Shown in pieces: positions 4,476-16,833 of a stretch of 64,000 nt of DNA. Below the pieces are notes generated by a model, which worked only from the letters and a program-made list of their open reading frames with translations, was not told the origin of the DNA and did not search any database. The stretch lies in the sequence record PQ671645.1; one strand, 5' to 3'. This stretch comes from Escherichia phage DCP548. Positions within the stretch are counted from its first letter, which is position 1. Every line of letters begins with the position of its first letter. The translations under genes were made by a program, and so were the position numbers.

Positions 4476-5918
4476 TTAAAATTTTAACTCATTGGCTAAG
4501 CTATCTAGGTCAGCACGTGTTGCTTTGGCTTTACCTACGCGTTCCGTACGATTCACCTCTGCCTGACGCATCTGAGCACCTGCGTTTTCATTTACTGTGT
4601 TAGGTGTGTTCATGCCTTCTTGCTCAATCTCAACCCATTTCTGATTGCCTTTACGTACACCCATCAGGAATTTATTCCACTTATTCTTATCACCATATCG
4701 TGATTTGATTTGTTTGATAAGTTGTTGTTCAGCTTGTGCAAGTTCTTCGGTTTCAATTACGGCCAACATGAAATCTGCCGTTGCTGGTAAACCTGCTGAT
4801 TCTGCAATATCGCTCATGTTCATATCCGAAGCATCCCATGCTGCACGTCCTACTTGAGCTGCAGTCCATAGAACTGTTTCAGATTCTACTGCTAATGCAC
4901 GAAGTTCTTCTGCGATAGCTTTAACTAATGTGTAACTATTTTCAGTGTAAACTCTGATGCGACAAGACCCACAAATACCTAAGTAATCAACCATGATTAC
5001 AGATGGCACAAAGTTCTTCTTGAGTTTCAATTCATTAAGCAATGCACGGAATGTATTAGCATTAGCTCCGCCAGTAGGATACTGTTTAACTACTAAACGT
5101 CCTAATGTGGATTTTGAACGCCATTTTTCCATCTTGGCTTTATATTCAGCATAAGATACGTTACCATCATCGATATCATCGAGCGATACGTCAAGCATAT
5201 TTGCATCTATACGCTTAGCACAAACTTCTTCAGCCATTTCCATGGAAATATAAAGAACATTATGTCCTGTTTGAAGATAATCTGCAGCAAGTGAACAAAG
5301 GCCTAAAGATTTACCAACGTTAACACCGGCCATTAAAACATTCAGTGTACCGGTTTCAGCACCACCTTTAGTGATTTTATTCAGAATGTTTAATTTGAAC
5401 GGGACCTTACGTGCTTTGTTCAGATAAGAAAGCCAGCGTGCTTCGTAGTCTTCCATCCAGTCGTGTCCAACATAACTATCAAACGAAATTGAAAGTGCTT
5501 GACGCATAATATCAGGAATAGCTCCTACGTCAGGCATTTTCTTGTTACGTTGTTCTGGAGGTAGTTCAGCATTAGACTGAATCTCAATGATTTTGGATGT
5601 AGCATTATACATCGCTTTTTGCTGGACATATTTCTCAGTTTCTTTAACCAACCATTCGTGGTCTTCAGGAGTATCAGCCAATTTTTCAATTAGGTCTGAA
5701 GTTCCTTTATATTCGGCTTCAGTTAAAGAACTGTTATCTAAAGCCACCTTTAATGCATTTATAGATGGCATTGCATTATATTCGTTAACGTGGCTCTTTA
5801 TAATTTTAAATACATTTTTTGCCGGTCCACGCTCAAAATACTCAGAATCCATATAAGGCCAGACCTTAGAAAAATAAGCCTGGTCATATACTAGATGAGA
5901 CAAAATAATTTCTACCAC
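4476..5918 (-). CDS. 41: replicative DNA helicase (DnaB-like) gp41
   Basis: 480 aa; Walker A GVNVGKS; size and synteny match T4 gp41. Confidence 0.93.
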   Translation of the reverse strand: MVEIILSHLVYDQAYFSKVWPYMDSEYFERGPAKNVFKIIKSHVNEYNAMPSINALKVALDNSSLTEAEYKGTSDLIEKLADTPEDHEWLVKETEKYVQQKAMYNATSKIIEIQSNAELPPEQRNKKMPDVGAIPDIMRQALSISFDSYVGHDWMEDYEARWLSYLNKARKVPFKLNILNKITKGGAETGTLNVLMAGVNVGKSLGLCSLAADYLQTGHNVLYISMEMAEEVCAKRIDANMLDVSLDDIDDGNVSYAEYKAKMEKWRSKSTLGRLVVKQYPTGGANANTFRALLNELKLKKNFVPSVIMVDYLGICGSCRIRVYTENSYTLVKAIAEELRALAVESETVLWTAAQVGRAAWDASDMNMSDIAESAGLPATADFMLAVIETEELAQAEQQLIKQIKSRYGDKNKWNKFLMGVRKGNQKWVEIEQEGMNTPNTVNENAGAQMRQAEVNRTERVGKAKATRADLDSLANELKF

Positions 5919-5927
5919 GATAACTCC

Positions 5928-6269
5928 TTAAAAGAATTTAAATTTTTTCTTGGTCCGTTCATTAAAAGCTTGTTGTACTTGCATTGTAACACATTTTTCA
6001 ACATGTGGTGCAAGTTCTGCTTTTCTGTCCTGGTCAAGAACTGCAAAGTCCATTACGATTTTACCATCAACCCAGTCTAGTTTTGTAATATAGACTATAT
6101 GATGAGAACCATCTTCAAGTGTAATCAGAATCTCTTGAATGACATTTTCCATTGCTGAACGGATAATTTTAAGAGATTCATTAAACACTCGTTCTTTGCG
6201 AATGTCTTCCCCTTCCGAAGAAGGGGATTCATCAACGATTTCTAGATTTAAATCATCGAGATTATTCAT
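5928..6269 (-). CDS. 40: gp40-like head vertex assembly chaperone
   Basis: ORF-track frame 5928..6413 trimmed to the ATG at 6269 (MNNLDDLN...), overlapping the uvsX stop by 8 nt; call is by synteny between uvsX and 41. Confidence 0.55.
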   Translation of the reverse strand: MNNLDDLNLEIVDESPSSEGEDIRKERVFNESLKIIRSAMENVIQEILITLEDGSHHIVYITKLDWVDGKIVMDFAVLDQDRKAELAPHVEKCVTMQVQQAFNERTKKKFKFF

Positions 6270-7434
6270 CGAAATCTTCCATTTCGTCAAGGTCGTTTTC
6301 AATATCTGCTGCAGACGGAGCATCAGAAGCTTTAACAGGAACTTTAGTTGTTGCTTTGCAATTAATAAGGTCGTTAACAGCGTCATCAACTTCTTTAATA
6401 GAAGAGATAGCACCTAGTTTATATTTAGCTTCAATTGCATCTCGGAAAGGTTTGTGTTTAAACAACGGTCCCCAGAATTCTACACAATCAGTAGCTTTAG
6501 CACGCCATGATTTTTCTTCACGAATCATTTCACCTGTTTCTTCGTCAAGGAATTCACGAGCATACCAACCGGCTTTAGGCTTAACAACAAATCCAATTTC
6601 AGTTGCCATTTCTAACAAGCCACTGAATGGATCGATACCGCCGTCAAAATTAACCGTGATTGGGAAAGTAGATTTCTCTTTAACTGTACGAGATTTTTCT
6701 GCTTTCAACGTGAAGTCATAACCGGTCAATTCTGTACCTTCTTTAACCTGACGTTTAGAGATAAAGAATACAGTGTTAGCAGAGTAAAGAATACCTGTAC
6801 CACCACCCATAATCTCTTTAGGATATAGTCCGCCGATTTCCATTGCTGTATGGTTGATTGCAACACACGGAATATCTTTAATAGTCAGATAAGGAGTCAC
6901 AATACGGAACAGAGATTTAAGTGCCTTAGCACGAGACATATCACCTACGACTTTCTCGTTCAATGCATCTTCGGTTTCTTTCTTAGATGCAGTATTACCG
7001 ATTGAATCGATAAAGATAATAACTTTATCACCGCGTTCAATAGCGTCAAGCTGATTAGTCATATCAACTTTAAGTTGTTCGACAGACTGAATTGGTGTAT
7101 GAACTACGCGGTCCAAATCAACACCCATTGAACGGAAGTAAGATTCCGAAGCACCAAATTCCGAGTCATAAAACAAACAGATTGCATCTTTATATTTCTT
7201 CATATACGCTGCAACCATGGTCAGTCCAAACAACGTTTTAAAGTGTTTAGAAGGAGCAGCAAAAATAGTTAAGCCTGATTGCAACCCGGCATTCAGTGCA
7301 CCACCTAATGCAATATTCAACATCGGAATACGAGTAGGGACTTCATCACGATTATTAAACAGCTTAGACTTAGTCAAGTCTGCAGTCATTTTAGAAGTAG
7401 AAGCTTTAATCAGACGAGATTTTAAATCAGACAT
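6262..7434 (-). CDS. uvsX: UvsX RecA-like recombinase
   Basis: 390 aa, MSDLKSRLIKASTSK... near-identical in outline to remembered T4 UvsX. Confidence 0.93.
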   Translation of the reverse strand: MSDLKSRLIKASTSKMTADLTKSKLFNNRDEVPTRIPMLNIALGGALNAGLQSGLTIFAAPSKHFKTLFGLTMVAAYMKKYKDAICLFYDSEFGASESYFRSMGVDLDRVVHTPIQSVEQLKVDMTNQLDAIERGDKVIIFIDSIGNTASKKETEDALNEKVVGDMSRAKALKSLFRIVTPYLTIKDIPCVAINHTAMEIGGLYPKEIMGGGTGILYSANTVFFISKRQVKEGTELTGYDFTLKAEKSRTVKEKSTFPITVNFDGGIDPFSGLLEMATEIGFVVKPKAGWYAREFLDEETGEMIREEKSWRAKATDCVEFWGPLFKHKPFRDAIEAKYKLGAISSIKEVDDAVNDLINCKATTKVPVKASDAPSAADIENDLDEMEDFDE

Positions 7435-7487
7435 TGTATTTTTCCATAGGCATCATTATATTTTACTCATGTTTAAAAGATAAGACG

Positions 7488-7514
7488 ATTATATACTAAG
7501 GGTTATACAGCATT
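7488..7514 (-). promoter_or_regulatory. middle-type promoter candidate upstream of uvsX
   Basis: Minus strand aaTGCTgtA, 12 nt, TATAAT; MotA-box-like with one mismatch. Confidence 0.4.
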
Positions 7515-7533
7515 TAAAACTTTAAACAGGCTC

Positions 7534-8082
7534 TTAACGAGCCCATTTGATAATTTCTGTAATCAAATTATTACGTTCGCTTGCATTAAATCCTATAACT
7601 TTGTTAGCACCATCATGATTAAGTAATTGATACGTTTGGATTTCGTTATGAATTGCAAACTCTTCAAAATATGAAATGACTGTATTAAAACCGAACGAAG
7701 ACAAAGTAATAAGGTCGTCTTCAAAACTTTCAGTCATTTCGTTACGTGTTAAAATAATTGTGAACACATCATGGTTTTGGCAAAGACGAACATAATCCTG
7801 TTCATAAACGTCAAGAACCGAGTCCGCATCTTGTCGAATACGTCCATAAACCCAGTTACTAATATATCCACGGTCTAACAGATAAATCTTAGTAGGGTCT
7901 AAATAATTCAACATCGTTTCGAAACAGCCAACTTCATTTCGAGACTTAACATCGAAACGTCCATCAACTGTTCGTTTAGGGAAATCAATCTTTACATATC
8001 TTTCACTAATTTCCATTATGTCATTAATGAAAGTTGTTTTACCAGCATTATCCGGGCCATCTACTAAAATAATTTTAGCCAT
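7534..8082 (-). CDS. P-loop kinase-like protein (dNMP/thymidylate-kinase-like fold)
   Basis: 182 aa; Walker A ILVDGPDNAGKTT and LLDRGYIS (DRY-like) motif; sits where T4 has beta-gt. Confidence 0.55.
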   Translation of the reverse strand: MAKIILVDGPDNAGKTTFINDIMEISERYVKIDFPKRTVDGRFDVKSRNEVGCFETMLNYLDPTKIYLLDRGYISNWVYGRIRQDADSVLDVYEQDYVRLCQNHDVFTIILTRNEMTESFEDDLITLSSFGFNTVISYFEEFAIHNEIQTYQLLNHDGANKVIGFNASERNNLITEIIKWAR

Positions 8083-8083
8083 T

Positions 8084-8983
8084 TTATTCCTCGATTACGA
8101 CATCTTCGTATTTAGGTATATTATACGGTGAAGAAATTAAAGCATTAAAGTAGATGAACTCACCAAGACCTGGATGGAATACTTCTTCAGGATTTTCGAA
8201 ATATTGAATCTTCGGACGTCCTTTAAGAATTTGATAGTACTCAGTTTTAGTTGGATTAAAAATTCGAATCAGCGCTTCTTCAGGATACTTATTTCTGTCG
8301 AAACTATTATTTGGATCAGTTATATAAAGCGGTTGACCTAATTGAATTGCGCATTCAACCACTTGTTCAAAACGATAGCATGGGTCACTAATTCGAAATG
8401 GATGAAAAATACCATCTAGATGAATAGGAGCCAAATCACCTACAAGACGCTGCATGACGGAAGGACGTATAACTTTCTGTGTTACGATAATCTTATTACC
8501 ATCCGCACCAGCGTTAACCAGCACTTCTTTTTGACGTTCATTCAACACAGTTGTTTGAAGTGAACGATTAACCGACAACATATCGGTTTTTAAGAATTCG
8601 TCAATATAAAAACGTGGTTTATTAGGGTCTGCGGTGATATTGAAATTGAATTCTACGTCAAAAGTGCCGTCATATCCAGTGATATCTGTGATTAGAAAAT
8701 CACAATCATAATAAGCAATTAATGAATCAACCACAAATTCATTTTCAGACCAGAAATATTTACGAGTGTTATACGCGTTATCTTTATACCATAATGGAAC
8801 AAACTTAAATTCCGGAAAAAGACGTTCACATTCTTTAATATCAGATGCATTACGTGGATATGTAATCACATCACCTGGATTAGCACGGTGCAAATGAAGT
8901 TGGAAGTTGCCATCCTTAAGGATAGCATACTGTCCAGTTTCATAAGACCGCATACTCAAGATAGGTACGCGGAAAATAGCCAT
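8084..8983 (-). CDS. hypothetical protein, candidate DNA sugar transferase (unsupported by motif)
   Basis: 299-aa ORF tightly coupled to gene 42 stop; no motif recognised; candidate role only by position in the glucosyltransferase slot. Confidence 0.45.
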   Translation of the reverse strand: MAIFRVPILSMRSYETGQYAILKDGNFQLHLHRANPGDVITYPRNASDIKECERLFPEFKFVPLWYKDNAYNTRKYFWSENEFVVDSLIAYYDCDFLITDITGYDGTFDVEFNFNITADPNKPRFYIDEFLKTDMLSVNRSLQTTVLNERQKEVLVNAGADGNKIIVTQKVIRPSVMQRLVGDLAPIHLDGIFHPFRISDPCYRFEQVVECAIQLGQPLYITDPNNSFDRNKYPEEALIRIFNPTKTEYYQILKGRPKIQYFENPEEVFHPGLGEFIYFNALISSPYNIPKYEDVVIEE

Positions 8984-9699
8984 TAGTCAAGGAATCCTTT
9001 AACATAATCAAAATCACGTTCAAACACATGGGCACTTACCATGGTATGAGTATAATCACCAACTTCTACACCGCATTCGTTAGCGATATAATGAAGTAAT
9101 TTTCCTTGGAGATAAAAATCCAACTGCATAACAACAGCACAGTTCTGAGAACGCATATGACAGTGGGTATAAAGCTTACCATCACGAATATAATAAGTCA
9201 CTGAGTCAGTACATGGATATTCAAGCGTTTCATCCGAATCAAGCAAAGCCTGATCTGAACTTTCAAGAATTTGAAACACAACTCTTCGTGAATTAGGTTT
9301 CTCTTTAAGTTCTTTGAGAAGAGCTGGTAACTGGGCCGCAATTCGTGGACCATAGAAAGTGTTGAAGTTCGCCGGCAAAACATCTGATTTTGGTTTAGAA
9401 ATAAATTTAGCGACATTAGGATACGCCTTAAACGCTTCTTCTGCGTTGGTACCACCAGAAATCATAAACTTCCAGAAATCTTCAGCATATTCATAAGAGA
9501 TGCGATTAATACGTGGGTCGGTCATTTTGAATGATGAAGGGGTATCAACAACTACTGTCATAGACCCAATTTCATTACAACGTCCAATACGAGAATCAGT
9601 TACGAATTCCGGGTTTTCTAAAATTTCACGATTGACAGCTTTAAATGCGGATTGAAAATCTGCGGCTTTAATATATTTCATTGTGTTATGTTTTCCCAT
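8983..9699 (-). CDS. 42: deoxycytidylate 5-hydroxymethyltransferase gp42 (thymidylate-synthase family)
   Basis: 238 aa; TS-family core RRVVFQ and catalytic Cys context YPCTDSVTYY; synteny. Confidence 0.8.
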   Translation of the reverse strand: MGKHNTMKYIKAADFQSAFKAVNREILENPEFVTDSRIGRCNEIGSMTVVVDTPSSFKMTDPRINRISYEYAEDFWKFMISGGTNAEEAFKAYPNVAKFISKPKSDVLPANFNTFYGPRIAAQLPALLKELKEKPNSRRVVFQILESSDQALLDSDETLEYPCTDSVTYYIRDGKLYTHCHMRSQNCAVVMQLDFYLQGKLLHYIANECGVEVGDYTHTMVSAHVFERDFDYVKGFLD

Positions 9700-9717
9700 G
9701 TTTACCTCAATACAGTT

Positions 9718-9741
9718 ATTATATACTCAATTCATAAAGCT
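9718..9741 (-). promoter_or_regulatory. middle-type promoter candidate upstream of gene 42
   Basis: Minus strand aAGCTTTA, 11 nt, TATAAT. Confidence 0.4.
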
Positions 9742-9880
9742 TATTTGAATTTCTTAGCGATGTTGATATAACGTAAAGCTTCAGCATCGATACTTCCAAG
9801 AACACTATGAAGAAATGCATCAGCGTAGTATTCTAGTTGAACAGGTTTCTTTAATCACTTTAGCCGCTTTAGTTTCAAAC

Positions 9881-9900
9881 AGGCCCATAAGGGCCTTTTT
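9881..9900 (+). terminator. terminator-like hairpin in plus-strand orientation (possibly bidirectional)
   Basis: AGGCCC-ATAA-GGGCCT followed by TTTTT on the plus strand, inside a 278-bp gap without a convincing ORF. Confidence 0.4.
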
Positions 9901-9977
9901 AAGAATTTGTTCGTTGCTGTTAATTTTCGTAGTCAAAATCTCTTCGTTAAGTTGGTGGTTAAAAGTTTTTCTAGAAA

Positions 9978-11138
9978 TCATTCTGGGTACCTCAAAGCGT
10001 CGTCAGAGTTAGTTATATCAATAATAGATATAGAATTTTCTGATAACCCATTTTTAGATAACTGACGTTTATAATATCTTTCACAATATGTACACGTCGT
10101 CCCGCAGATTTCATTAGCACAATCGAAATCTGGATGTTTGAACCACCTTTTTTCTAAAAAGCCATCTAACAAAGAGGTTTCAATATTTACCGTATGTGAA
10201 AACTCGGTCTCATTTTCAAGAGTGAAAATGGTCTCTAAAGGCTTCCACAATTCCAACAAATTACCTTCAAATTTTTCAGAAGCATAAGCTTCAAGAACTT
10301 TCAAAATGTAGTCTGTGCTACCTGTACGTCCTGAAACTTTGAATTGAGTGATACCAATATCATTATAAAGTTTCAAATCTTGAGGACGAACAAAACGAGT
10401 TCTCAACCAGTTAAATGGGTCTGTATCACGAGCTTTAATACAGTGCTGCATAGGATATCCGTTTAAGGATTTAGCATCATCAGCTGTAACATCAGTACTA
10501 TGGAAAATATAGCAAGAGTCACGATAGCTACAATGTGTTGTATACCCTTTACCAGCATTAGAACAGAACTCATTTACAAGAACTTCAAATATTATATTGT
10601 TCTTATTACAAAACTCTGCTGCACGCTTCAGGAAAGAAACTGAACGGTTCTTATGAATTCCACAGCAGACCTTTTTGATATTATATTGGTCGTGCAAGTA
10701 TTTGATTTGAGTTACAGCATCGACATGTAGAATTGTTGAAACTTCAATCTCAATGTCTTTATTGACTTCACGAACAATTTCCATAACAACAGGGTTAGCG
10801 ATAGTAATACGCCATACGCCTATTGACCAAAGATACTGAACATAATCCTGAATAGCTTTCTTCTTCCACTCAACTAGTTCTCTTTTTGAACCAGGATTTA
10901 TCGTGTTGAGTGTATAGTTAAAGCAAATACCTAATTCGTTACAACGTTTAACGTAATCTTCTAACATCTTTTTGTCAACGTCAGGAAGCCTAAAATCAGG
11001 TCTGGCTGCTACAAAAGCCATTTCTCTTGTAGAGCCGTATACTTCATTTATCAAGCTATTAGGATAAGTTTTATTGAGCTCTACGATTTTATCAAGAAGA
11101 GCTAAATCAAAATTCGTTCCGATTTTAAAGGTATTCAT
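9978..11138 (-). CDS. Cys-rich enzyme of unknown function (possible Fe-S protein)
   Basis: 386 aa; C-terminal FDCANEICGTTCTYC (C-x4-C-x3-C-x2-C) plus EFCSNAGKGYTTHCSYRDSC; first gene downstream of the sugar-pathway genes. Confidence 0.5.
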   Translation of the reverse strand: MNTFKIGTNFDLALLDKIVELNKTYPNSLINEVYGSTREMAFVAARPDFRLPDVDKKMLEDYVKRCNELGICFNYTLNTINPGSKRELVEWKKKAIQDYVQYLWSIGVWRITIANPVVMEIVREVNKDIEIEVSTILHVDAVTQIKYLHDQYNIKKVCCGIHKNRSVSFLKRAAEFCNKNNIIFEVLVNEFCSNAGKGYTTHCSYRDSCYIFHSTDVTADDAKSLNGYPMQHCIKARDTDPFNWLRTRFVRPQDLKLYNDIGITQFKVSGRTGSTDYILKVLEAYASEKFEGNLLELWKPLETIFTLENETEFSHTVNIETSLLDGFLEKRWFKHPDFDCANEICGTTCTYCERYYKRQLSKNGLSENSISIIDITNSDDALRYPE

Positions 11139-11192
11139 TTTTGCATCTCGCGTTAATTGTTGCGATGGTTTTTGCAGGTCTTACTTAAATTA

Positions 11193-11594
11193 TTATAGAT
11201 TCGGTTTATATGATTTAAATGTTTCGAATTCGCCTTTATTCATAAGAGCTTTGAATTCGTCAGGACGCATAGCTTTGTCGTCGATAATCCAATCATATAC
11301 TGGTTTATGTGTTAGCAAATTATGGTACTTCAAGCCAATGTTTGCCAAGTTCTGAATCAGACTTGGGAGAATGTCAATTGCTATACGGCCAGGACCTACT
11401 GACTTCATACCGCGAGCAGTGTAAAGCGTTATTGTATGCCCTGCATCATACAGGGCATTAATGGCAGACACCATTTCGACGTCTGGTTTGAAGTTCACGT
11501 AATCACGATTGTTATTCCACTCTGTTATACAATCATCGACATCAAAACAAAGATTAAGCATGTTTTCTACACGGTGCATTAGATTCGTTCCCAT
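11193..11594 (-). CDS. HAD-superfamily phosphatase, KdsC-like
   Basis: 133 aa; motif I FDVDDCI, later TARG and K...DD motifs. Confidence 0.6.
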   Translation of the reverse strand: MGTNLMHRVENMLNLCFDVDDCITEWNNNRDYVNFKPDVEMVSAINALYDAGHTITLYTARGMKSVGPGRIAIDILPSLIQNLANIGLKYHNLLTHKPVYDWIIDDKAMRPDEFKALMNKGEFETFKSYKPNL

Positions 11595-13264
11595 TGATGA
11601 GTGATATCGCCACCGATTGGACGATAGGAAACACCAGTTTCTTTATCAGTTAGTACCCATTTACCAGGATTTTTTGTAATCAGAGTAGCCGTTACAGGTT
11701 CTGCTACGTCATAACTAATAGAGCCGTCCTGAAGTACACGGCCCATGTTACGTAATTGCTTAGTCAGAAGTTCCATACCTTTATAATATGCGGCTACCGC
11801 TTTAAGTGGATTATTCTTGAAATAACCACCTAATGCAATCCAGATAATTGCCACTGCCAAATGATGATACTCGTTAAACGAACTCATCTTTCCATATTTG
11901 TAAACTAATGGATTGATGTTAATAGTCACATTACAAGTTGTTTCATCAATAGTAAATTGCCCCCAGGTCGGATTAGCATTGAATTCATCATAACCTGAAA
12001 CAGCATAAAGCACTTTAGCTTCATCATACAATTTTGGCCCATAAATCTTGGTTTCGCCAAAATATCCACGAGGGTCGATAAACTTGACTTCACCATTATC
12101 AGTAATCATAGTATTACTAAAGTTCGGGTCACCATGAATAACAGAGTACTGTCCCTGAGAACGGTTATGATAACGAATAAGGTGTTCTAAAGCTTGTTTC
12201 AGCATTGGCTTCAGACGCCCAATCTTAGTGTAGTTCACATGTGTGATTTTACCAAATGAATCAATCAATGGTTGAATACTTTCACAACGATCAATAACTT
12301 TCGTATAGAACTCTTTAGTGAAATCACGACGAACAGTTTCAGGACTTACAAAATAAGTGTCTGTGCTGAATTTCAGTGCGTCTAAAATTGCATCAACAAT
12401 TTGTGGACGAGCAAGACTTGATTTGGATTTAATATATTCAAATGCCGGCTTACCTTTAATGCGTTCCATTTCAAAGTTATTTTCATTAACAGAAACTAAC
12501 TGAGGAACTGAATCTGATTTCACTTTAAGATACCATGAAATCTCATCTTTCTGAAGAGCTCGGCCCTGTTCGGTTAATGCGAATTTAGTTACAGTTTCTT
12601 CACCGATTTCAACTGCATTAAAACTACGATTAAGTTCACGAACTTCATGAGCCTTTTCAAGTTTAGGCATATCACCTAAATCAATTAGATTCATAAGCTC
12701 TGATTTATTGAATGCGCTGCCGTAAAGGAATTCTACGAAATCACGTCCTTTGCAGTATTCATGAATTTCCTCATCAGTAGAACCCATATAGAATTCCCAG
12801 TCTTTGAACTGATAAATTCCTACAACATTACCACCTGTTGAACCTACGTTAGTGATATTTTCACCGTCGAAATTATATCGACATTCGTCACCCTTAACAT
12901 AGATTGCGTTAACATTCCAAGACCATGAACCAAAATCGGGAATAATATCACACCAGTTAACAATTACATTATGGCCGTCTAAATCTTTGTGCAATTTAGC
13001 AAGAGCATAAGCAGAACCATATGCTTCATCAACTGTACGAATAGTCACATTGAACCCTTCTTGCTCACAATAAGCTCGAACAGTTTCAGCAAATTTTGAA
13101 TGAACTACTACAATAATTTCGTCTGCGCCAAGGTCAGAATAAATTGTATACAAATTGCTCAGAATAGTGTCTTGTTTATAGTTAACAAGCACCTTAGGAA
13201 TATGATGCGTTATTGGATACAAACGAGTTGCCAGTCCAGCACCAAGAATAACAGCTTTTTTCAT
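11579..13264 (-). CDS. bifunctional sugar-1-phosphate nucleotidyltransferase / kinase (LicC-LicA-like fusion)
   Basis: 561 aa; N-terminal ILGAGLATRLYPIT...PK (GxGxRL nucleotidyltransferase signature); C-terminal HGDPNFSN and FIDPRG (Brenner and DFG-like kinase motifs). Confidence 0.65.
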   Translation of the reverse strand: MKKAVILGAGLATRLYPITHHIPKVLVNYKQDTILSNLYTIYSDLGADEIIVVVHSKFAETVRAYCEQEGFNVTIRTVDEAYGSAYALAKLHKDLDGHNVIVNWCDIIPDFGSWSWNVNAIYVKGDECRYNFDGENITNVGSTGGNVVGIYQFKDWEFYMGSTDEEIHEYCKGRDFVEFLYGSAFNKSELMNLIDLGDMPKLEKAHEVRELNRSFNAVEIGEETVTKFALTEQGRALQKDEISWYLKVKSDSVPQLVSVNENNFEMERIKGKPAFEYIKSKSSLARPQIVDAILDALKFSTDTYFVSPETVRRDFTKEFYTKVIDRCESIQPLIDSFGKITHVNYTKIGRLKPMLKQALEHLIRYHNRSQGQYSVIHGDPNFSNTMITDNGEVKFIDPRGYFGETKIYGPKLYDEAKVLYAVSGYDEFNANPTWGQFTIDETTCNVTININPLVYKYGKMSSFNEYHHLAVAIIWIALGGYFKNNPLKAVAAYYKGMELLTKQLRNMGRVLQDGSISYDVAEPVTATLITKNPGKWVLTDKETGVSYRPIGGDITHQWERI

Positions 13265-13305
13265 GTTGTGGTCCTCATTGGTAAGTAGGAGTATTGTACA
13301 CTATT

Positions 13306-13449
13306 CTAGTTAAAGCATTCATACTTTGCTTGTAGTCCAATCATAATCCATCCAATTACAAGTGTTGGAATCATTACCGGAGCCGTTAAGCTCCAGTAGA
13401 TAGTCATGACAAGCATCAATAGTAAAAGTCCTATTGTTATTGCTTTCAT
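13306..13449 (-). CDS. small hydrophobic peptide (47 aa)
   Basis: Hand-found: ATG overlaps the isomerase stop (ATGA); MKAITIGLLLLMLVMTIYWSLTAPVMIPTLVIGWIMIGLQ...; below ORF-track size cut-off. Confidence 0.35.
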   Translation of the reverse strand: MKAITIGLLLLMLVMTIYWSLTAPVMIPTLVIGWIMIGLQAKYECFN

Positions 13450-14081
13450 TGTTCGCCTCGTAACATGGCACCTAGTGCACCGCCAGGGTGGAACTTAAGG
13501 AAATCATTAGAGGTAAATCCACGTTCAGACGAAAGGTTGATAGCAAACGTATCGATAAGCGCTAACAACAATGTAGTGGACATTGTCGGAGCTAAAGAGT
13601 TCTCGTCAACTTCTACAGCGATACCGGTACAGAACGTATAATCAAAAAGAGCTTCGTATTCTTGTGGAATGTCAGGGTTACAATGCAACAGAATCTGTTT
13701 GACGTTCGGACGAATCATTTTAAGATGCTTAGCCACGCCTATCATTTCTTCAGTTTTACCAGAACGACTAATATGAATCAACACATCATTAGGCGCAATG
13801 AATCCTGCATCACCGTGAGAATAATGCCCGGTGTTCAAGTACATACTCGGGATACCGAGTGAAGCAAATGTCTCAGAAGCTTTAGTTGCGATATTAGCGT
13901 TCTTACCAACACCTGTAATAATTACACGACTTTCATAATTACTAAGTCCAGGGCGTCGAAGAGTTTCTAGAATAGCATTATAACGAGCAGGGTTTTGACT
14001 AATTACTTTGGCCATAGCGGCCAAAGAAGAAGCTTGTTTTATGATTGCGTCAATAGCGATAGTAATAGGAGTAGTTTTCAT
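13446..14081 (-). CDS. SIS-domain sugar-phosphate isomerase, arabinose-5-phosphate isomerase-like (KdsD/GutQ)
   Basis: 211 aa; GVGKNANIATK SIS motif and C-terminal FHPGGALG characteristic of KdsD/GutQ. Confidence 0.7.
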   Translation of the reverse strand: MKTTPITIAIDAIIKQASSLAAMAKVISQNPARYNAILETLRRPGLSNYESRVIITGVGKNANIATKASETFASLGIPSMYLNTGHYSHGDAGFIAPNDVLIHISRSGKTEEMIGVAKHLKMIRPNVKQILLHCNPDIPQEYEALFDYTFCTGIAVEVDENSLAPTMSTTLLLALIDTFAINLSSERGFTSNDFLKFHPGGALGAMLRGEQ

Positions 14082-14121
14082 ATTTCTCTCATTTAATTAG
14101 TTTACCGTCCATGTCATTATA

Positions 14122-16833
14122 TCAAAAATCGAACATATCGAATAGAGATGCTTTCTTCTCGTAATCGAGTTTCGCTGCTGATGTGAATCCTTCAAGTGGT
14201 TTAATAAATGTCTTCTCAAGGAGAACAGTGTAGTCCATCCAATGAAGTACGTCGTCTTTAATTAAATCTGTGATTTCAGTACCAGAAGGCCATGCGATAC
14301 ATTTATCACCGAATGGGTTTCCTTCGCGTAAAGGCAGAACATATACTTTTTCACCTTCTACAACTTGCGGTGCATCGATATTACCTTTGATAGCCCGGTT
14401 ATACGTCAGAATTCCACGAATATGGAACGGGCATTTGGGACCAGGGAATCCACCTACATCATATTTAGCAATGTTATTCGCAGAAGATACCGACGCGATG
14501 CTAATATAATTCAATTGACGGAATTCTTTTTCAAACTCTTTAAAATATTCTTGTAATGATTCTTCACCTTCTTGAAGCATACGACGAATACATTCTTTAA
14601 GAGCTTTCTGTACTGCTTTAGGAGTCGAAGATTTCTGAGTCTCTAGACCCATGATTTTGAGTTTAGGCTCAGCGTAACGAGTACCTTCCATATCCCACAC
14701 GTTTAATGCATAACGTTTCTTACCAGTCCAGAATCCACCAATACCTTTAGAACCGAGTGGAGGACCAGCGATAGCTTCTCGGTCCATGAACATTAAGTGT
14801 TGTTTATTGTTCATGTATTCACACATTTCACGGAAACCTCTATCAATAGCTGGTTCCATACGTTCACGTGCAAACTTATCTAAGAAGTCTACCCAATGGT
14901 TGGTATCACGGAATTTAGATTCACCAACCTTATCGATAATTTTATCAGCAGATACGTAAATAGAGTCTGTATCACCATAAAGAACGAAAGCTTCACCTTC
15001 TGTGCCACAAACTTCATTCAGATATTCATTAACTTTACGTTCAATCCACTGTAAAGCCATTTGACCAAATGTTGTGATTGCAGTAGCATTACGCAAATCA
15101 TAATAACGAAACCAAACGTTGCCAAGTGCACCATAAAGTGAGTTGATAAGCAATTTACGGTTAATTTGGGCAGTCATACCTGCAACTTCAGTACGTTGAG
15201 CTCTAAACAACATTTCATTAAGAGATTTAGCAGACAACTTTTTAATCTTTTCTTTAATCTCATCGCTGAAGTCGAAACGATAATCAACATCTAATGGTTC
15301 GTCAACAGAAAGATTAGGATTATGCAATGCCTCTTTAATTATTTCACCATTACGTTGAGCTGCAAGCATGTAACCTTTATGTTCTTTACGTTGATTAAAG
15401 ACCTTAGTGATTTCAGTTGGAACTACACCATCACGGTCTTTATAATACATCATGCCGTTAGGAGAACAACTGTACACATCAGAAGGACGTTCAGCAACAG
15501 CGTTAATATAATCATGCAATGGAGCTACTTTAAACGTTCCTGCTATTGTTTCTGGGCTAATATTCACTTGGCGAATAATACTTGGATACAGAGATGTAAG
15601 GTCGAAACTCATTACATATTTGTATCGATTTGGAATAGGTTCCTTAACAAAAGCGCCGGGATAAGGTTGAACCGGGTGAGAACGACCTTGTGGAATCACC
15701 TTGTTCTGCTCTTTAAGGCTATTAAAAATAATAGCATCCCATGTTTTAATTGGGCTAAACACAGATTGAATCTGTATCTTAGCATAATAACCCATGTCCA
15801 AACTCAAGTTGATGAACTGACGCTTAGCATCAATTTGCAATACACGATACACATCGATAATGTTATAAGAAATATATCGTTGGTGATTGCTTTCACGAAG
15901 CTTAGAAATAGGGCCGTCATATTTCAGTTTACCAACGTTCAATTCAAATTCTGAAATGTAATCCAGAGAATATGACGGCTGATTGGTAAAAGAGAATTTT
16001 TTGTAAAGGTCAATGTAATCAAGAACAGAGATACCGAATAATGTAATGATTTCACGAGAACCATACATGTTTTCGATAACTTTAACACGAGTTTTACGAT
16101 GTGGTGATAAACGTTTCGCAGTAGATTCGCCAAAAATATTCTTGATTCGGTTATACACATATGGAATATCAAATGACTCAACGTTCCATCCAGTCAAAAT
16201 GACAGGAGTTTTCTGTTGCCAGAAGTTGAGATATTCCATCAACAATTCTTTTTCGTTATCGAACGGCATATAAATGATTTTATCGATAATTTCGGATGGA
16301 ACTTCATCACCGCCTTGTTCTTGAAGCTTAGCAGCGATTTCAATAGACCATTCTTCTACATTACCATATGGAGAATTCAATAGATCAAATACGTAGAACC
16401 TGTCGTCAATTGAGTCATAATGGGTGATAGCATCAATCGGATGTTTTGCTTGTGACGGCTCAGGGAACCCATCTGGAGATGTTACTTCGATGTCGAAGTT
16501 AGCCACACGAATTTTTGTATGGTCGTATTTGATTTCATAGTTATAAGTGTCAGACAAATACGCCAATTTGAAATCGTCCATGCCAAGTGCTTCAAGTCCG
16601 ATATCTTCCATGCGTTTAATCCATTGTGAGGCATCACGCATATTGGCGAACAACTTACGAGTACACGGCTTACCGTAGATATCGAAATATTTCGTAGCCT
16701 GACTTTCTGGACAATGAGCAAACAGTGATGGTTTATATTCTACTTCACGAGTACGTTCACGGCCGTTAGAATCGATGTAACGTTCAAAAATTGAATCACC
16801 AATCTGTTCAACCGTTAAGTAAAATTCTTTCAT
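14122..16833 (-). CDS. 43: DNA polymerase gp43 (family B)
   Basis: 903 aa; MKEFYLTVEQIGDSIFERYIDSNGRE..., exo motif FDIEV, pol motifs YGDTDS and SLYPS; matches remembered RB69 gp43. Confidence 0.97.
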   Translation of the reverse strand: MKEFYLTVEQIGDSIFERYIDSNGRERTREVEYKPSLFAHCPESQATKYFDIYGKPCTRKLFANMRDASQWIKRMEDIGLEALGMDDFKLAYLSDTYNYEIKYDHTKIRVANFDIEVTSPDGFPEPSQAKHPIDAITHYDSIDDRFYVFDLLNSPYGNVEEWSIEIAAKLQEQGGDEVPSEIIDKIIYMPFDNEKELLMEYLNFWQQKTPVILTGWNVESFDIPYVYNRIKNIFGESTAKRLSPHRKTRVKVIENMYGSREIITLFGISVLDYIDLYKKFSFTNQPSYSLDYISEFELNVGKLKYDGPISKLRESNHQRYISYNIIDVYRVLQIDAKRQFINLSLDMGYYAKIQIQSVFSPIKTWDAIIFNSLKEQNKVIPQGRSHPVQPYPGAFVKEPIPNRYKYVMSFDLTSLYPSIIRQVNISPETIAGTFKVAPLHDYINAVAERPSDVYSCSPNGMMYYKDRDGVVPTEITKVFNQRKEHKGYMLAAQRNGEIIKEALHNPNLSVDEPLDVDYRFDFSDEIKEKIKKLSAKSLNEMLFRAQRTEVAGMTAQINRKLLINSLYGALGNVWFRYYDLRNATAITTFGQMALQWIERKVNEYLNEVCGTEGEAFVLYGDTDSIYVSADKIIDKVGESKFRDTNHWVDFLDKFARERMEPAIDRGFREMCEYMNNKQHLMFMDREAIAGPPLGSKGIGGFWTGKKRYALNVWDMEGTRYAEPKLKIMGLETQKSSTPKAVQKALKECIRRMLQEGEESLQEYFKEFEKEFRQLNYISIASVSSANNIAKYDVGGFPGPKCPFHIRGILTYNRAIKGNIDAPQVVEGEKVYVLPLREGNPFGDKCIAWPSGTEITDLIKDDVLHWMDYTVLLEKTFIKPLEGFTSAAKLDYEKKASLFDMFDF

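Follow-up and report, generated by a model that had tools for sequence, protein, structure and literature searches.

A nine-gene Mosigvirus module for arabinosylated 5-hydroxycytosine and a candidate role for its U32-family protein

Extent and gene order of the module

In phage T4 the interval between genes 42 and 43 holds imm and imm.1, and not imm alone as an earlier, sequence-only reading of the DNA studied here had it, whereas in Escherichia phage DCP548 this interval is occupied by a sugar-nucleotide gene cluster. What do these genes make, which base receives the product, and what part is played by the Cys-rich protein encoded among them? We examined these questions in a 64,000-nucleotide stretch of sequence record PQ671645.1 (the window), which is DNA of a Mosigvirus, whose module proteins share 97-100% identity with their counterparts in phage HY126 and ~99% with those in RB69. 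Identity to HY126 is 100% for the SIS isomerase, HAD phosphatase and nucleotide kinase, 99.7% for the U32 protein, 99.0% for the glycosyltransferase, 98.3% for the ThyA-like enzyme, 97.9% for a 47-aa peptide and 97.1% for the bifunctional enzyme. Against RB69 it is 98.7-99.5% for the SIS, HAD, U32, ThyA-like and kinase proteins and 99.6% for the bifunctional enzyme.

The ORF list of the window contains five tightly packed, co-directional minus-strand ORFs at 9978-14081, flanked by the genes for gp43 DNA polymerase (14122-16833) and the ThyA-like protein (8983-9699). Their initial description as overlapping or coupled holds because the measured junctions lie between -16 and +54 nt: +40 nt for gp43/SIS, -4 nt for SIS/47-aa, +41 nt for 47-aa/561-aa, -16 nt (or -1) for 561-aa/HAD and +54 nt for HAD/U32. 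The five genes are indeed where they had been placed, but the functional unit stretches past 9978, down to 7534. A GT-B glycosyltransferase gene (8084-8983) and a thymidylate-kinase-like gene (7534-8082) adjoin, and therefore the module comprises nine genes at 7534-14081 on the minus strand, of which the five sugar genes are the sugar-donor half.

Two members of the module are small. With a mean Kyte-Doolittle value of 1.36, the 47-aa peptide (13306..13449; RB69 ORF054c-like), which matches PHROG 3610 (E 7e-27; function unknown), is strongly hydrophobic, in keeping with its earlier description as a membrane peptide, and is probably not enzymatic; it is kept in HY126, in LC53 (59.6%) and in JS98, where it adjoins imm. 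The other, an RB69 ORF049c-like gene (9742..9981; PHROG 8601, unknown function), is frameshifted by a single additional A that RB69 lacks (AAAGAAACC), leaving a 53-aa ORF at 9820-9981 and the rest in another frame. Most Mosigviruses have its counterpart unbroken; among the Mosigvirus matches listed it is split in ~9/56. We considered this gene as a chorismate mutase and rejected it: it has no Pfam match even at E <= 10, and it coexists with a true chorismate mutase in Yersinia phages and Serratia phage 92A1.

A pathway to arabinosylated 5-hydroxycytosine

The 211-aa product of 13446..14081, the RB69 ORF055c orthologue, is a single-domain SIS D-arabinose-5-phosphate isomerase, interconverting ribulose-5-phosphate and arabinose-5-phosphate (Ara5P). 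It matches Pfam SIS (41 bits), PHROG 5670 'arabinose 5-phosphate isomerase' (E 2e-116) and, over the SIS part only and under the cutoff of 203.7, NCBIfam KpsF/GutQ (112.7 bits); its best PDB match is 3ETN (E 5.5e-25), and it is 99.1% identical to its RB69 counterpart. It had been correctly recognized as an Ara5P isomerase, but its description as KdsD/GutQ-type does not hold: those enzymes join SIS to a CBS pair, whereas the phage protein has one SIS domain without it. The 561-aa protein (11579..13264; AfhE analogue; RB69 ORF53_52c) combines a Pfam NTP_transferase domain (residues 3-99; PDB 1JYK, E 2e-5) with weak kinase-fold matches (Fructosamin_kin, EcKL and RIO1) at residues ~344-409, in agreement with its proposed status as a nucleotidyltransferase/kinase fusion. 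The HAD-superfamily phosphatase (11193..11594; AfhF analogue; RB69 ORF051c) is encoded by an ORF of 133 aa from the first Met, although the product is probably 128 aa, starting at the second Met and matching the RB69/HY126 annotation and PDB construct 9IQW; residues 5-133 are 100% identical to 9IQW and to the HY126 protein. Previously described as KdsC-like, it is instead of the EcbF/BcbF capsule-phosphatase type (NCBIfam TIGR01689, E 4e-13). The reported motifs FHPGGALG (SIS residue 197), FDVDDCI (HAD residue 17, with DVDDC as HAD motif I) and HGDPNFSN (residue 377 of the 561-aa protein) are present; a motif search did not find a literal GxGxRL in the 561-aa protein, whose N-terminus bears the signature GAGLATRL (residue 8) instead.

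The acceptor is determined by the 'gene 42' product (8983..9699; RB69 gp48), a ThyA-superfamily 5-hydroxy-dCMP synthase predicted to carry out flavin- and O2-dependent hydroxylation of dCMP. It retains the catalytic Cys, has D at ThyA position 177, and bears the signature of the D169N hydroxylases, with Asn replacing, at ThyA position 169, the D of T4 gp42. It is 98.7% identical to RB69 gp48 and 98.3% identical to PDB 9IQC/9IR2, with four substitutions that are also its differences from HY126, 9IQC being the HY126 hydroxylase in sequence. RB69 gp48 yields 5-hydroxy-dCMP using O2 and flavin, as established by 18O2 labelling and with FMN (PMC13326640), and in the DNA of RB69 and Mosigvirus NP arabose is bound directly to the C5-O (PMC13326640, PMC13390438). 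Judged by these residues and identities, the acceptor base is 5-hydroxycytosine, not the hmC proposed earlier.

No glycosyltransferase had been recognized in the window, but one lies in the slot held by beta-gt in the T4 gene order. This 299-aa protein (8084..8983; RB69 gp46:47) is predicted to adopt a GT-B fold (AF2 model, pLDDT 93.6), with Foldseek matches to MshA 3C4Q (E 9e-7, TM 0.60), 6KIH and 9IR0, 'phage HY126 glycosyltransferase with UDP'; in sequence it does not resemble T4 beta-gt (E 0.54). Section 26 of PMC13326640 proposes the first arabosyl transfer for this enzyme, as a step neither demonstrated nor reconstituted there. The 182-aa P-loop kinase (7534..8082; RB69 ORF045c; PHROG 761 thymidylate kinase, E 5e-45), homologues of which adjoin the glycosyltransferase in distant phage contigs, probably phosphorylates the modified dNMP.

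Following the order of steps demonstrated in close relatives, dCMP would be hydroxylated at C5 by the ThyA-like enzyme, the SIS isomerase would provide Ara5P from ribulose-5-phosphate, and the kinase at the C-terminus of the 561-aa protein would convert this to arabinofuranose-1,5-bisphosphate, as reported for HY126 AfhE. The HAD phosphatase would then remove the 5-phosphate, and the N-terminal nucleotidyltransferase would combine Ara-1-P with UTP to give UDP-arabinofuranose (UDP-Araf), which serves in vitro as sugar donor for phage DNA (PMC13326640 sections 26-27). The thymidylate-kinase-like enzyme may help phosphorylate the modified nucleotide, the first arabinose would come from the GT-B enzyme, and the next from another glycosyltransferase, encoded at a different place in the genome. 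The chemistry and enzymology of this pathway in RB69-like phages are already published (PMC13326640 sections 24-27 and 29, PMC13390438; earlier proposal in PMC6024577). By orthology to these systems, the module apart from its U32 step can be taken as an essentially established pathway for arabinosylated 5-hydroxycytosine in Mosigvirus DNA. In this respect the sequence-only reading was right that a sugar-nucleotide pathway starting at an Ara5P isomerase feeds arabinosylation of a modified cytosine, and its remark that RB69-group phages carry arabinosylated cytosine was correct (PMC6024577; PMC13326640).

That reading had gp42 making hydroxymethyl-dCMP as in T4 and NDP-arabinose arising via free arabinose through the successive action of isomerase, phosphatase, anomeric kinase and nucleotidyltransferase, with arabinosyl-hmC as the product; it matches what the literature held in 2018 (PMC6024577) and is compatible with the domain content. 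It is contradicted by N169 in place of the D169 of T4 gp42, by 98-99% identity to 5-hydroxy-dCMP makers (PMC13326640) and by the direct C5-O linkage. In section 27 of PMC13326640, as it cites He et al. 2026, the HY126 route runs from Ara5P through Ara-1,5-bisphosphate and Ara-1-P to UDP-Araf, with the AfhE kinase step preceding the AfhF phosphatase and, in that account, no free arabinose. NMR/MS and enzymology have already refuted arabinosyl-hmC for RB69, NP and HY126, and we consider it very improbable here. Scarcely credible is a role in remodelling the host envelope by supplying Kdo, LPS or capsule sugars: the nearest cellular families of the isomerase and phosphatase are the capsule/Kdo enzymes KpsF/GutQ and EcbF/BcbF, and many GenBank records bear such names, but KdsA, KdsB and any transferase acting on envelope acceptors are missing from the cluster, its genes are embedded among those for DNA polymerase, a base hydroxylase, a DNA-type glycosyltransferase and a nucleotide kinase, and the HY126 orthologues make UDP-Araf.

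The U32-family protein and its neighbours

The 386-aa protein encoded at 9978..11138 (RB69 ORF050c) had been described as Cys-rich, which its 13 Cys, 10 of them invariant across its clade, bear out; no role had been assigned to it. It matches Pfam PF01136 Peptidase_U32 (42.2 bits; cutoff 22.4), and its AF2 model (pLDDT 91.7) is a TIM barrel with PDB 5D88 as top fold match. Pairwise BLAST against the E. coli paralogues gave no significant match, and hhalign against the four E. coli U32 hydroxylases gave a probability of 95.8% (E 7e-9), with RlhA as the best single paralogue (E 3.4e-5). Within the U32 family, to which RlhA, TrhP and UbiU/V belong as prephenate-dependent, O2-independent hydroxylases, the protein falls into a separate clade of phage members. 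Its C203/C209 align on C169/C176 of the ho5C synthase RlhA, which are essential for ho5C (PMC5727448); by position, 2/4 canonical Fe-S cysteines map, with a spacing of C-x5-C versus C-x6-C. Prephenate is needed for RlhA and is the proposed oxygen donor for UbiU/V (PMC10990095, PMC5727448).

Two independent observations link the phage U32 gene to prephenate. A gene for a CM_2 chorismate mutase stands beside the U32 and ThyA-like genes in 51/51 phage records where it was found (44.6 and 40.9 bits; cutoff 27), with 4-nt overlaps in both loci examined, LC53 and Entb_45; and U32 is immediately followed by a DAHP synthase gene (237 bits versus 63 for KDO8P synthase) in one metagenomic phage contig that is unrelated. 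In four distant metagenomic phage contigs, U32 (50-54% identical) occurs together with homologues of the module glycosyltransferase and with no ThyA-like gene in the 7-8 kb flanks; it closes an overlapping kinase-glycosyltransferase-U32 run in three of them, and in the fourth (L014) glycosyltransferase, SIS and AfhE homologues directly precede it. Conversely, three contigs found starting from the glycosyltransferase have a D169N ThyA-like gene and a Flavodoxin_2 gene, and are without U32. The neighbours of U32 in seven distant contexts are genes for dCMP deaminase, Tmk-like kinase, dUTPase, NT5C, dNK and TAGT, with no tRNA or rRNA modification gene among them.

U32 is accessory: it is absent from the arabinosylating phages Maestro and JS98. 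It is also absent from 57/57 Acinetobacter phage records carrying the bifunctional enzyme. Acinetobacter is an obligate aerobe. Where present, U32 is constrained, being the most conserved module protein relative to LC53 (83.7%, above DNA polymerase at 75.4%) and still 50-56% identical in phages whose bifunctional enzyme, glycosyltransferase and SIS protein drop to 23-31%.

Possible roles of the U32 protein

By analogy with what is proposed for RlhA, TrhP and UbiU/V, the phage U32 protein could place a hydroxyl on a pyrimidine by Fe-S chemistry, taking the oxygen from prephenate. We propose that it provides a second, O2-independent, prephenate-dependent route of pyrimidine C5-hydroxylation, a reading on which we are evenly divided. 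For it speak the family match, the prephenate-gene neighbours, the displacement of the ThyA-like gene, the accessory status and host range, and the constraint. On the other side, in vitro hydroxylation has so far been demonstrated for no U32 protein (PMC10990095), the substrates of the known relatives are RNA polymers or a quinone rather than nucleotides, and the partial Fe-S cysteine set and non-significant BLAST weigh likewise. Dhakaviruses such as JS98 have E. coli hosts, yet are without U32; Mosigviruses, including this window with its frameshifted small gene in that slot, have no chorismate mutase, nor was one found near U32 in the distant contigs, where the ThyA-like absence holds for the 7-8 kb flanks only. 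The label 'sugar or heterocycle reductase' given to RB69 gp50 (PMC13326640 Table 1) also counts against the proposal. In the literature covered, which was incomplete, we found no published statement of phage U32 as an O2-independent hydroxylase; this proposal is our own.

Rather unlikely, in our assessment, is that U32 is a pathway helper, either regenerating reduced flavin for the ThyA-like enzyme or acting as a sugar/heterocycle reductase. A flavin hydroxylase requires a reductant, electron transfer is common among Cys-rich Fe-S proteins, and the U32 gene of T4-like phages invariably has the ThyA-like gene close by; but the four contigs pair U32 with the glycosyltransferase (and in three the kinase) with no ThyA-like gene in the flanks, ThyA-like genes without U32 adjoin a Flavodoxin_2-family gene, a more obvious reductase, and a reductase leaves the adjacent chorismate mutase or DAHP synthase unaccounted for. 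Still less probable is hydroxylation of host or phage tRNA U34 or 23S rRNA C2501 to tune translation, with chorismate mutase supplying prephenate. Although RNAs are the sole characterized nucleic-acid substrates of U32 proteins (PMC5727448, PMC6599085) and RlhA is the best-matching paralogue, the phage protein lacks the RlhA-specific C-terminal region (386 versus 653 aa), and the genes around it in the distant contexts encode enzymes of deoxynucleotide metabolism and homologues of DNA glycosyltransferases. A genuine collagenase-like peptidase, as the family name and most database records including GenBank annotations have it, can be set aside, as the peptidase name is a historical one, hydroxylations depend on those E. 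coli members that have been studied (PMC5727448, PMC6599085, PMC10990095), and ten invariant Cys in a nucleotide-metabolism context suit a redox enzyme.

Taken as a whole, the best explanation, which we hold with considerable confidence, is a nine-gene module that replaces cytosine by arabinosylated 5-hydroxycytosine, with U32 as a proposed second hydroxylation route. If the U32 proposal is true, modified phage DNA could be made even when the facultatively anaerobic host is without oxygen.

Gene content of the arabinosylation cluster

Positions 9978-14081 hold five co-directional minus-strand ORFs, which code for a 211-aa SIS protein (13446-14081), a hydrophobic peptide of 47 aa (13306-13449), a 561-aa nucleotidyltransferase/kinase fusion (11579-13264), a HAD protein of 133 or, probably, 128 aa (11193-11594) and a 386-aa protein with 13 cysteines (9978-11138), hereafter U32. 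The ORF listing and the junction distances (neighbouring ORFs overlap by 4 or 16 nt or lie 40-54 nt apart) bear out the tight packing described in the sequence-only reading. The cluster lies between the gp43 DNA polymerase, an RB69-type enzyme, and a thymidylate-synthase-like gene, and base composition is uniform across the region. A promoter and terminator scan of 7300-14300 returned 22 promoter-like sites, where chance predicts 27 +/- 6; the scan adds no evidence for an operon to that of the gene spacing. Counting a Tmk-like kinase at 7534-8082, the functional unit comprises nine genes (7534-14081). More than 150 Mosigvirus genomes, RB69 among them, match the region at 97.5-98.5% DNA identity; the closest record shows 98.5% identity, with no identical record among those searched.

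Family scans (Pfam, PHROG and NCBIfam) classify the SIS protein as SIS/arabinose-5-phosphate isomerase, the 561-aa protein as NTP_transferase with weak kinase-fold matches, the HAD protein as an EcbF/BcbF-type phosphatase and the 386-aa protein as Peptidase_U32. The longest HAD ORF (133 aa) has five more codons at its 5' end than the 128-aa form annotated in RB69 and phage HY126 and used in the construct of PDB 9IQW; the shorter form overlaps the upstream gene by 1 nt, the longer by 16 nt. The 47-aa peptide is conserved in T4-like phages and adjoins imm in JS98; it may belong to the superinfection/membrane gene group rather than to the sugar pathway.

Papers of 2018 to 2026 already describe this cluster, its connection with DNA arabinosylation and the larger part of its enzymology, the chemistry having since been corrected to 5-hydroxycytosine. 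Arabinose was found in RB69 DNA, a frameshift correction merged ORF052/053 into a single 561-residue protein, and ORF055c and ORF53_52c, within an eight-gene module absent from T4, were proposed as UDP-arabinose genes (Thomas et al. 2018, PMC6024577). The sugar proved to be bonded directly to 5-hydroxycytosine; 5-hydroxy-dCMP is made by the FMN-binding ThyA homologue RB69 gp48, with oxygen derived from 18O2, and the DNA receives its sugar from UDP-arabinofuranose (Lee et al. 2026, PMC13326640). The resulting 5-O-arabinosyl-deoxycytidine has been shown in virion DNA of RB69, NP and other phages (PMC13326640, PMC13390438). As outlined in PMC13326640, citing He et al. 2026, the HY126 route runs from Ru5P to Araf5P by the isomerase, to Araf-1,5-P2 by the kinase domain of AfhE, to Araf-1-P by the phosphatase AfhF and to UDP-Araf by the nucleotidyltransferase domain of AfhE.

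The window genes are identical in kind and order to those of HY126 (Afh) and RB69 (gp45-gp55, gp3), with 97-100% amino acid identity and no functional difference. Relative to HY126, the SIS, HAD and kinase proteins are 100% identical, U32 99.7%, the glycosyltransferase 99.0%, the ThyA-like enzyme 98.3% and the bifunctional enzyme 97.1%; relative to RB69, identity is 98.7-99.5% for the SIS, HAD, U32, ThyA-like and kinase proteins (98.7% for the ThyA-like enzyme against gp48) and 99.6% for the bifunctional enzyme. Two window proteins have counterparts among solved HY126 structures: 9IQW has the same sequence as the HAD protein (whose other PDB relative is 1XPJ), and the ThyA-like enzyme differs from 9IQC at four positions, the same four at which it differs from HY126, which identifies 9IQC as the HY126 enzyme. 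Aligned with E. coli ThyA and T4 gp42, the ThyA-like protein keeps the catalytic cysteine (YPCTDS) and D177, the cytosine-specificity residue, and has asparagine at position 169 (RSQN), where T4 gp42 keeps aspartate (RSND). N169 is the signature given for 5-hydroxy-dCMP synthases (PMC13326640), and the window protein is accordingly not of the T4 (gp42, D169) dCMP hydroxymethylase type. Thus, the window combines a D169N ThyA-superfamily member retaining D177 and the catalytic cysteine, a SIS isomerase encoded together with the bifunctional and HAD enzymes, and a GT-B glycosyltransferase syntenic with RB69 gp46:47, as in the arabinosyl-5-hydroxycytosine module.

The glycosyltransferase (299 aa, 8084-8983) has no Pfam match, and its family aligns with T4 beta-gt at an hhalign E-value of only 0.54, the general GT-B fold being all that the two have in common. 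Its AF2 model (pLDDT 93.6) adopts a GT-B fold, with Foldseek matches to MshA (3C4Q), sucrose-phosphate synthase (6KIH) and 9IR0, described as 'phage HY126 glycosyltransferase with UDP'. Lacking both a Pfam match and similarity to beta-gt, this ORF was not recognisable to the sequence-only reading, which recognised no alpha-gt or beta-gt in the window and missed the GT-B enzyme. Like the T4 hydroxymethylcytosine (hmC) system (gp42, gp1, alpha-gt, beta-gt), the window system uses a ThyA-superfamily dCMP modifier, a kinase and GT-B decoration, with its glycosyltransferase standing in the position of beta-gt. However, T4 hydroxymethylates with folate, whereas the window enzyme hydroxylates with flavin and O2; and since the sugar is arabinofuranose, the phage, unlike T4, has to produce the donor itself. 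Between genes 43 and 42 T4 has imm, as had been supposed, and also imm.1, followed by beta-gt; the window has the sugar genes and U32.

Likewise, the Kdo and capsule pathways (KdsD/GutQ/KpsF; KdsC, EcbF/BcbF) share with the window a SIS catalytic domain, a HAD fold and the Ru5P to Ara5P step, whereas the window lacks CBS domains, KdsA and KdsB. The Kdo system ends in CMP-Kdo and the arabinosylation system in UDP-Araf (PMC13326640). Contrary to the type given in the sequence-only reading, the isomerase is not a KdsD/GutQ member: only the SIS part aligns, without tandem CBS domains, its scores fall below the NCBIfam cutoffs (107 against 505 bits for KdsD, 80 against 481 for GutQ, 112.7 against 203.7 for the KpsF/GutQ subfamily), and its closest solved relative is the single-domain 3ETN. 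Similarly, a KdsC/YrbI assignment of the HAD protein fails, its sole NCBIfam match being the EcbF/BcbF capsule phosphatase family TIGR01689 (49 bits).

Taken as a whole, the sequence-only reading was right in outline that sugar-nucleotide genes serve DNA arabinosylation, the HY126 orthologues being 97-100% identical, and its motifs are present, save that the one quoted as GxGxRL is actually GAGLATRL. Its interpretation was wrong on four points: the base, which is 5-hydroxycytosine and not hmC, given N169 in an enzyme 98.3% identical to that of HY126; the order of the sugar steps, which in HY126, by the account in PMC13326640 of He et al. 2026, pass through Araf-1,5-P2 and not free arabinose; the subfamily of the HAD protein; and the supposed lack of a glycosyltransferase. 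Its statement that RB69-group phages carry arabinosyl-hmC holds for the arabinose in RB69 DNA (PMC6024577), and the earlier assignment of hmC to RB69 is called an error in a 2026 survey (PMC13390438). The cluster finding as stated adds nothing new, and its possible importance lies in the leftover U32 gene.

The U32 protein: affinities, cysteines and distribution

In PMC13326640 the RB69 orthologue of U32, gp50, appears in Table 1 only, labelled 'sugar or heterocycle reductase', and neither chorismate nor iron-sulfur is mentioned anywhere in that paper. We found no literature linking U32 proteins or chorismate mutase to phage 5-hydroxycytosine in a search whose coverage did not extend to He et al. 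2026 and Mahler et al. 2025. A transposon-mutagenesis preprint on Bas46/LC53 contains nothing on these genes at the level of single genes. Characterized Peptidase_U32 members include RlhA (ho5C2501 of 23S rRNA), TrhP (ho5U34 of tRNA) and UbiU/UbiV (hydroxylation of ubiquinone under anaerobic conditions); they are Fe-S proteins that require prephenate and work without O2 (PMC5727448, PMC6599085, PMC10990095).

The window protein scores 42.2 bits against Pfam PF01136 (gathering score 22.4), and its AF2 model (pLDDT 91.7) retrieves the U32 protein 5D88 as top Foldseek match in the PDB (E 9e-8). A phmmer search of PDB sequences gave no match, so fold and profile methods are needed for this protein; pairwise BLAST against RlhA, TrhP, UbiU and UbiV was likewise not significant. 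A profile of the phage clade matches RlhA best (E 3.4e-5), followed by TrhP (2.5e-3) and UbiU (1.3e-2), and aligns with a profile of the four E. coli paralogues over 217 columns (probability 95.8%, E 7e-9). These alignments pair C203 and C209 with RlhA C169 and C176, and E190 with E161; both RlhA cysteines are essential for ho5C formation (PMC5727448). Ten cysteines are invariant across 33 clade members, down to 46% identity: C158, C177, C192, C203, C209, C233 and a C-terminal CX4CX3CX2C (C340/345/349/352). Of the four-cysteine 4Fe-4S motif two positions align (C203/C209), and the remaining two canonical Fe-S cysteines do not map. The phage protein has in common with its E. coli counterparts the TIM-barrel core, the aligned RlhA-essential cysteine pair, additional conserved cysteines and a genomic link to prephenate; it differs in cysteine spacing, in the extra C-terminal motif, in lacking the DUF3656 region of RlhA and in its presumed substrate, a deoxynucleotide or DNA rather than RNA or quinone.

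A tblastn search places U32 in 221 phage records, with identities of 80% or more throughout; the hosts are Enterobacterales and Shewanella. For the bifunctional enzyme the count is 373 records, 57 of them from Acinetobacter phages without U32. Maestro (Acinetobacter) and JS98 (E. coli Dhakavirus) carry the rest of the module without U32, which is therefore accessory to arabinosylation; an essential role is ruled out by these two and by DLP3-type Acinetobacter phages (also PMC13326640). Compared with Serratia phage LC53, U32 is the most conserved module protein (83.7% identity, the others 60-82%; polymerase 75.4%). LC53 also carries a putative homing endonuclease gene (5352-5990) between the HAD phosphatase and U32 genes, indicating that this junction tolerates insertions. 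In a profile search of 1.84 billion representatives the clade amounted to only 457 clusters when E <= 1e-30 was required, and to 1,664 with E <= 1e-3. By its sequences it is thus small and stands clearly apart from ordinary U32 proteins, and all members examined lie in phage or phage-like contexts.

Gene neighbourhoods of the U32 clade

LC53 and Entb_45 have the gene order U32 - chorismate mutase - ThyA-like, with 4-nt overlaps, their small proteins reaching 44.6 and 40.9 bits against Pfam CM_2, above the cutoff of 27. By tblastn this phage chorismate mutase occurs in 51 phage records from about a dozen host genera, always between U32 and the ThyA-like gene. Similarly, an unrelated 80-kb metagenomic phage contig (L014) has a type I-beta DAHP synthase directly after U32; the alternative of a KDO8P synthase was rejected at 63 bits against 237 and 216 for DAHP synthase. 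DAHP synthase catalyses the first step on the way to chorismate and prephenate. No chorismate mutase was found near U32 in the distant contigs, and tblastn with the phage mutases found no match in the U32 region of the window.

Mosigviruses lack the mutase, which is confined to other genera, and have in its slot a separate small gene, ORF049c. RB69 ORF049c gives no Pfam match at E <= 10 and no CM_2 signal; it is not a decayed chorismate mutase, as it lacks this signal and both genes coexist in Yersinia phages and Serratia phage 92A1. The window copy (9742-9981, minus strand) is frameshifted by one extra A (AAAGAAACC), leaving a 53-aa ORF, and HY126 has this insertion plus a second one. RB69 has an intact 79-aa form, as do most Mosigvirus records among the matches listed, which rules out a Sanger sequencing error in RB69. 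On this pattern, either the phages can do without the gene or its homopolymer stretches invite sequencing errors.

Clade members with 50-56% identity all lie in phage or phage-like contexts next to replication genes, among deoxynucleotide genes coding for dCMP deaminase, Tmk-like kinase, dUTPase, UDG, NT5C and dNK. Three metagenomic contigs (L010, L015 and L016) have an overlapping kinase-glycosyltransferase-U32 run, in which the glycosyltransferase is homologous to the 299-aa window enzyme (E 9e-9 to 1e-12) and the kinase, more weakly, to that of the window (E 7e-3 to 2e-5). In L014 a glycosyltransferase (E 8e-17), a SIS protein (E 2e-21) and the bifunctional enzyme (E 4e-49) directly precede U32. 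No ThyA-like gene was detectable in the short U32 flanks of these four contigs. Conversely, three distant glycosyltransferase homologues, in contigs of 122-356 kb, belong to modules with a ThyA-like gene (N169/D177), a Flavodoxin_2-family gene and the kinase, and without U32. Thus, the glycosyltransferase module is accompanied by the flavin enzyme in some phages and by U32 in others, and enterobacterial T4-like phages have both.

Several further arrangements were observed. The Flavodoxin_2-family gene, similar to FMN-dependent NAD(P)H oxidoreductases, lies directly upstream of the D169N ThyA-like gene in L021 (6739-7293) and L022 (6715-7275) and about 5.8 kb upstream in L020 (1-523); its product is a candidate flavin reductase partner of the ThyA-like hydroxylase, of which we noticed no mention in PMC13326640. 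The 61-kb contig L015 encodes in a row (4777-13179) a Gly_transf_sug protein, the kinase, the glycosyltransferase homologue, U32, a TAGT-like glycosyltransferase, a dUTPase/DCD and UDP-galactopyranose mutase; this looks like a different DNA hypermodification built on the U32 enzyme, probably one containing galactofuranose. In the 86-kb contig L008, U32 is accompanied (5135-15428) by NT5C, a PnuC-like transporter, a deoxynucleoside kinase, a radical-SAM/SPASM protein, a second, diverged U32-like gene (22% identical) and a nucleoside 2-deoxyribosyltransferase. That cluster is deoxynucleoside-centred, and a nearby dockerin-bearing GH43 indicates that L008 probably derives from a Clostridia-like host or prophage. 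Two jumbo-phage-like contigs have a conserved 248-254-aa protein directly after U32 (L007, 9175-9939; L013, 8080-8826); the two copies are 58% identical and match no family. There a dCMP deaminase precedes U32 and this protein, an arrangement that would fit dUMP rather than dCMP as substrate.

A possible oxygen-independent deoxynucleotide hydroxylase

Together, the family affinities and gene neighbourhoods suggest, on the most economical reading, that U32 may be an O2-independent, prephenate-dependent C5-hydroxylase of a pyrimidine deoxynucleotide, dCMP here and possibly dUMP elsewhere, a proposal that we consider evenly balanced between right and wrong. Under this proposal U32 would hydroxylate C5 without O2, taking the oxygen from prephenate, and in some phages a phage-encoded chorismate mutase or DAHP synthase would raise the supply of this donor. 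T4-like phages of enterobacteria would have in U32 an anaerobic counterpart to the flavin- and O2-dependent ThyA-like 5-hydroxy-dCMP synthase, and many uncultured phages in which U32 goes with the same glycosyltransferase and kinase would depend on it as their sole hydroxylase. The E. coli U32 proteins are themselves O2-independent twins of O2-dependent enzymes, and the phage pairing would mirror TrhO/TrhP and UbiI-H-F/UbiU-V.

Against this hydroxylase reading, the cysteine motif is only half conserved, JS98 infects E. coli without U32, the window has no chorismate mutase, and the flanks in which no ThyA-like gene was detected are short. Moreover, no U32 protein has been reconstituted in vitro, there being still no hydroxylation assay for the family (PMC10990095). 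A reductase or helper function, as in the published label for RB69 gp50, appears unlikely beside the prephenate-pathway neighbours and the four contigs that have U32 with the glycosyltransferase and no ThyA-like gene in the short flanks. That known U32 substrates are RNA or quinone (PMC5727448, PMC6599085, PMC10990095) also counts against deoxynucleotide hydroxylation; hydroxylation of RNA is a rival reading, which we consider quite improbable for a clade lying among deoxynucleotide genes. A true peptidase, as the family name has it, can practically be dismissed, the characterized relatives being hydroxylation proteins.

Deoxynucleotide hydroxylation by U32 would also meet a physiological demand. 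The published hydroxylase needs O2, yet every cytosine is replaced and the hosts are facultative anaerobes, gut bacteria often living without oxygen, from which we infer that a second route would be needed. The folate-dependent T4 hydroxymethylase needs no O2, and T-even phages have both aerobic and anaerobic ribonucleotide reductases. If the proposal is true, U32 would be the first enzyme of its family with a small soluble substrate and, with a mononucleotide to work on, much simpler to reconstitute than those whose substrates are the ribosome, tRNA or membrane quinones; the hypothesis is thus specific and cheaply testable. An O2-independent route would explain how these phages replicate without oxygen and would be relevant to phage therapy in anoxic sites. 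The U32 clade marks hundreds of uncultured phage lineages, in which there may be unknown glycosylated bases.
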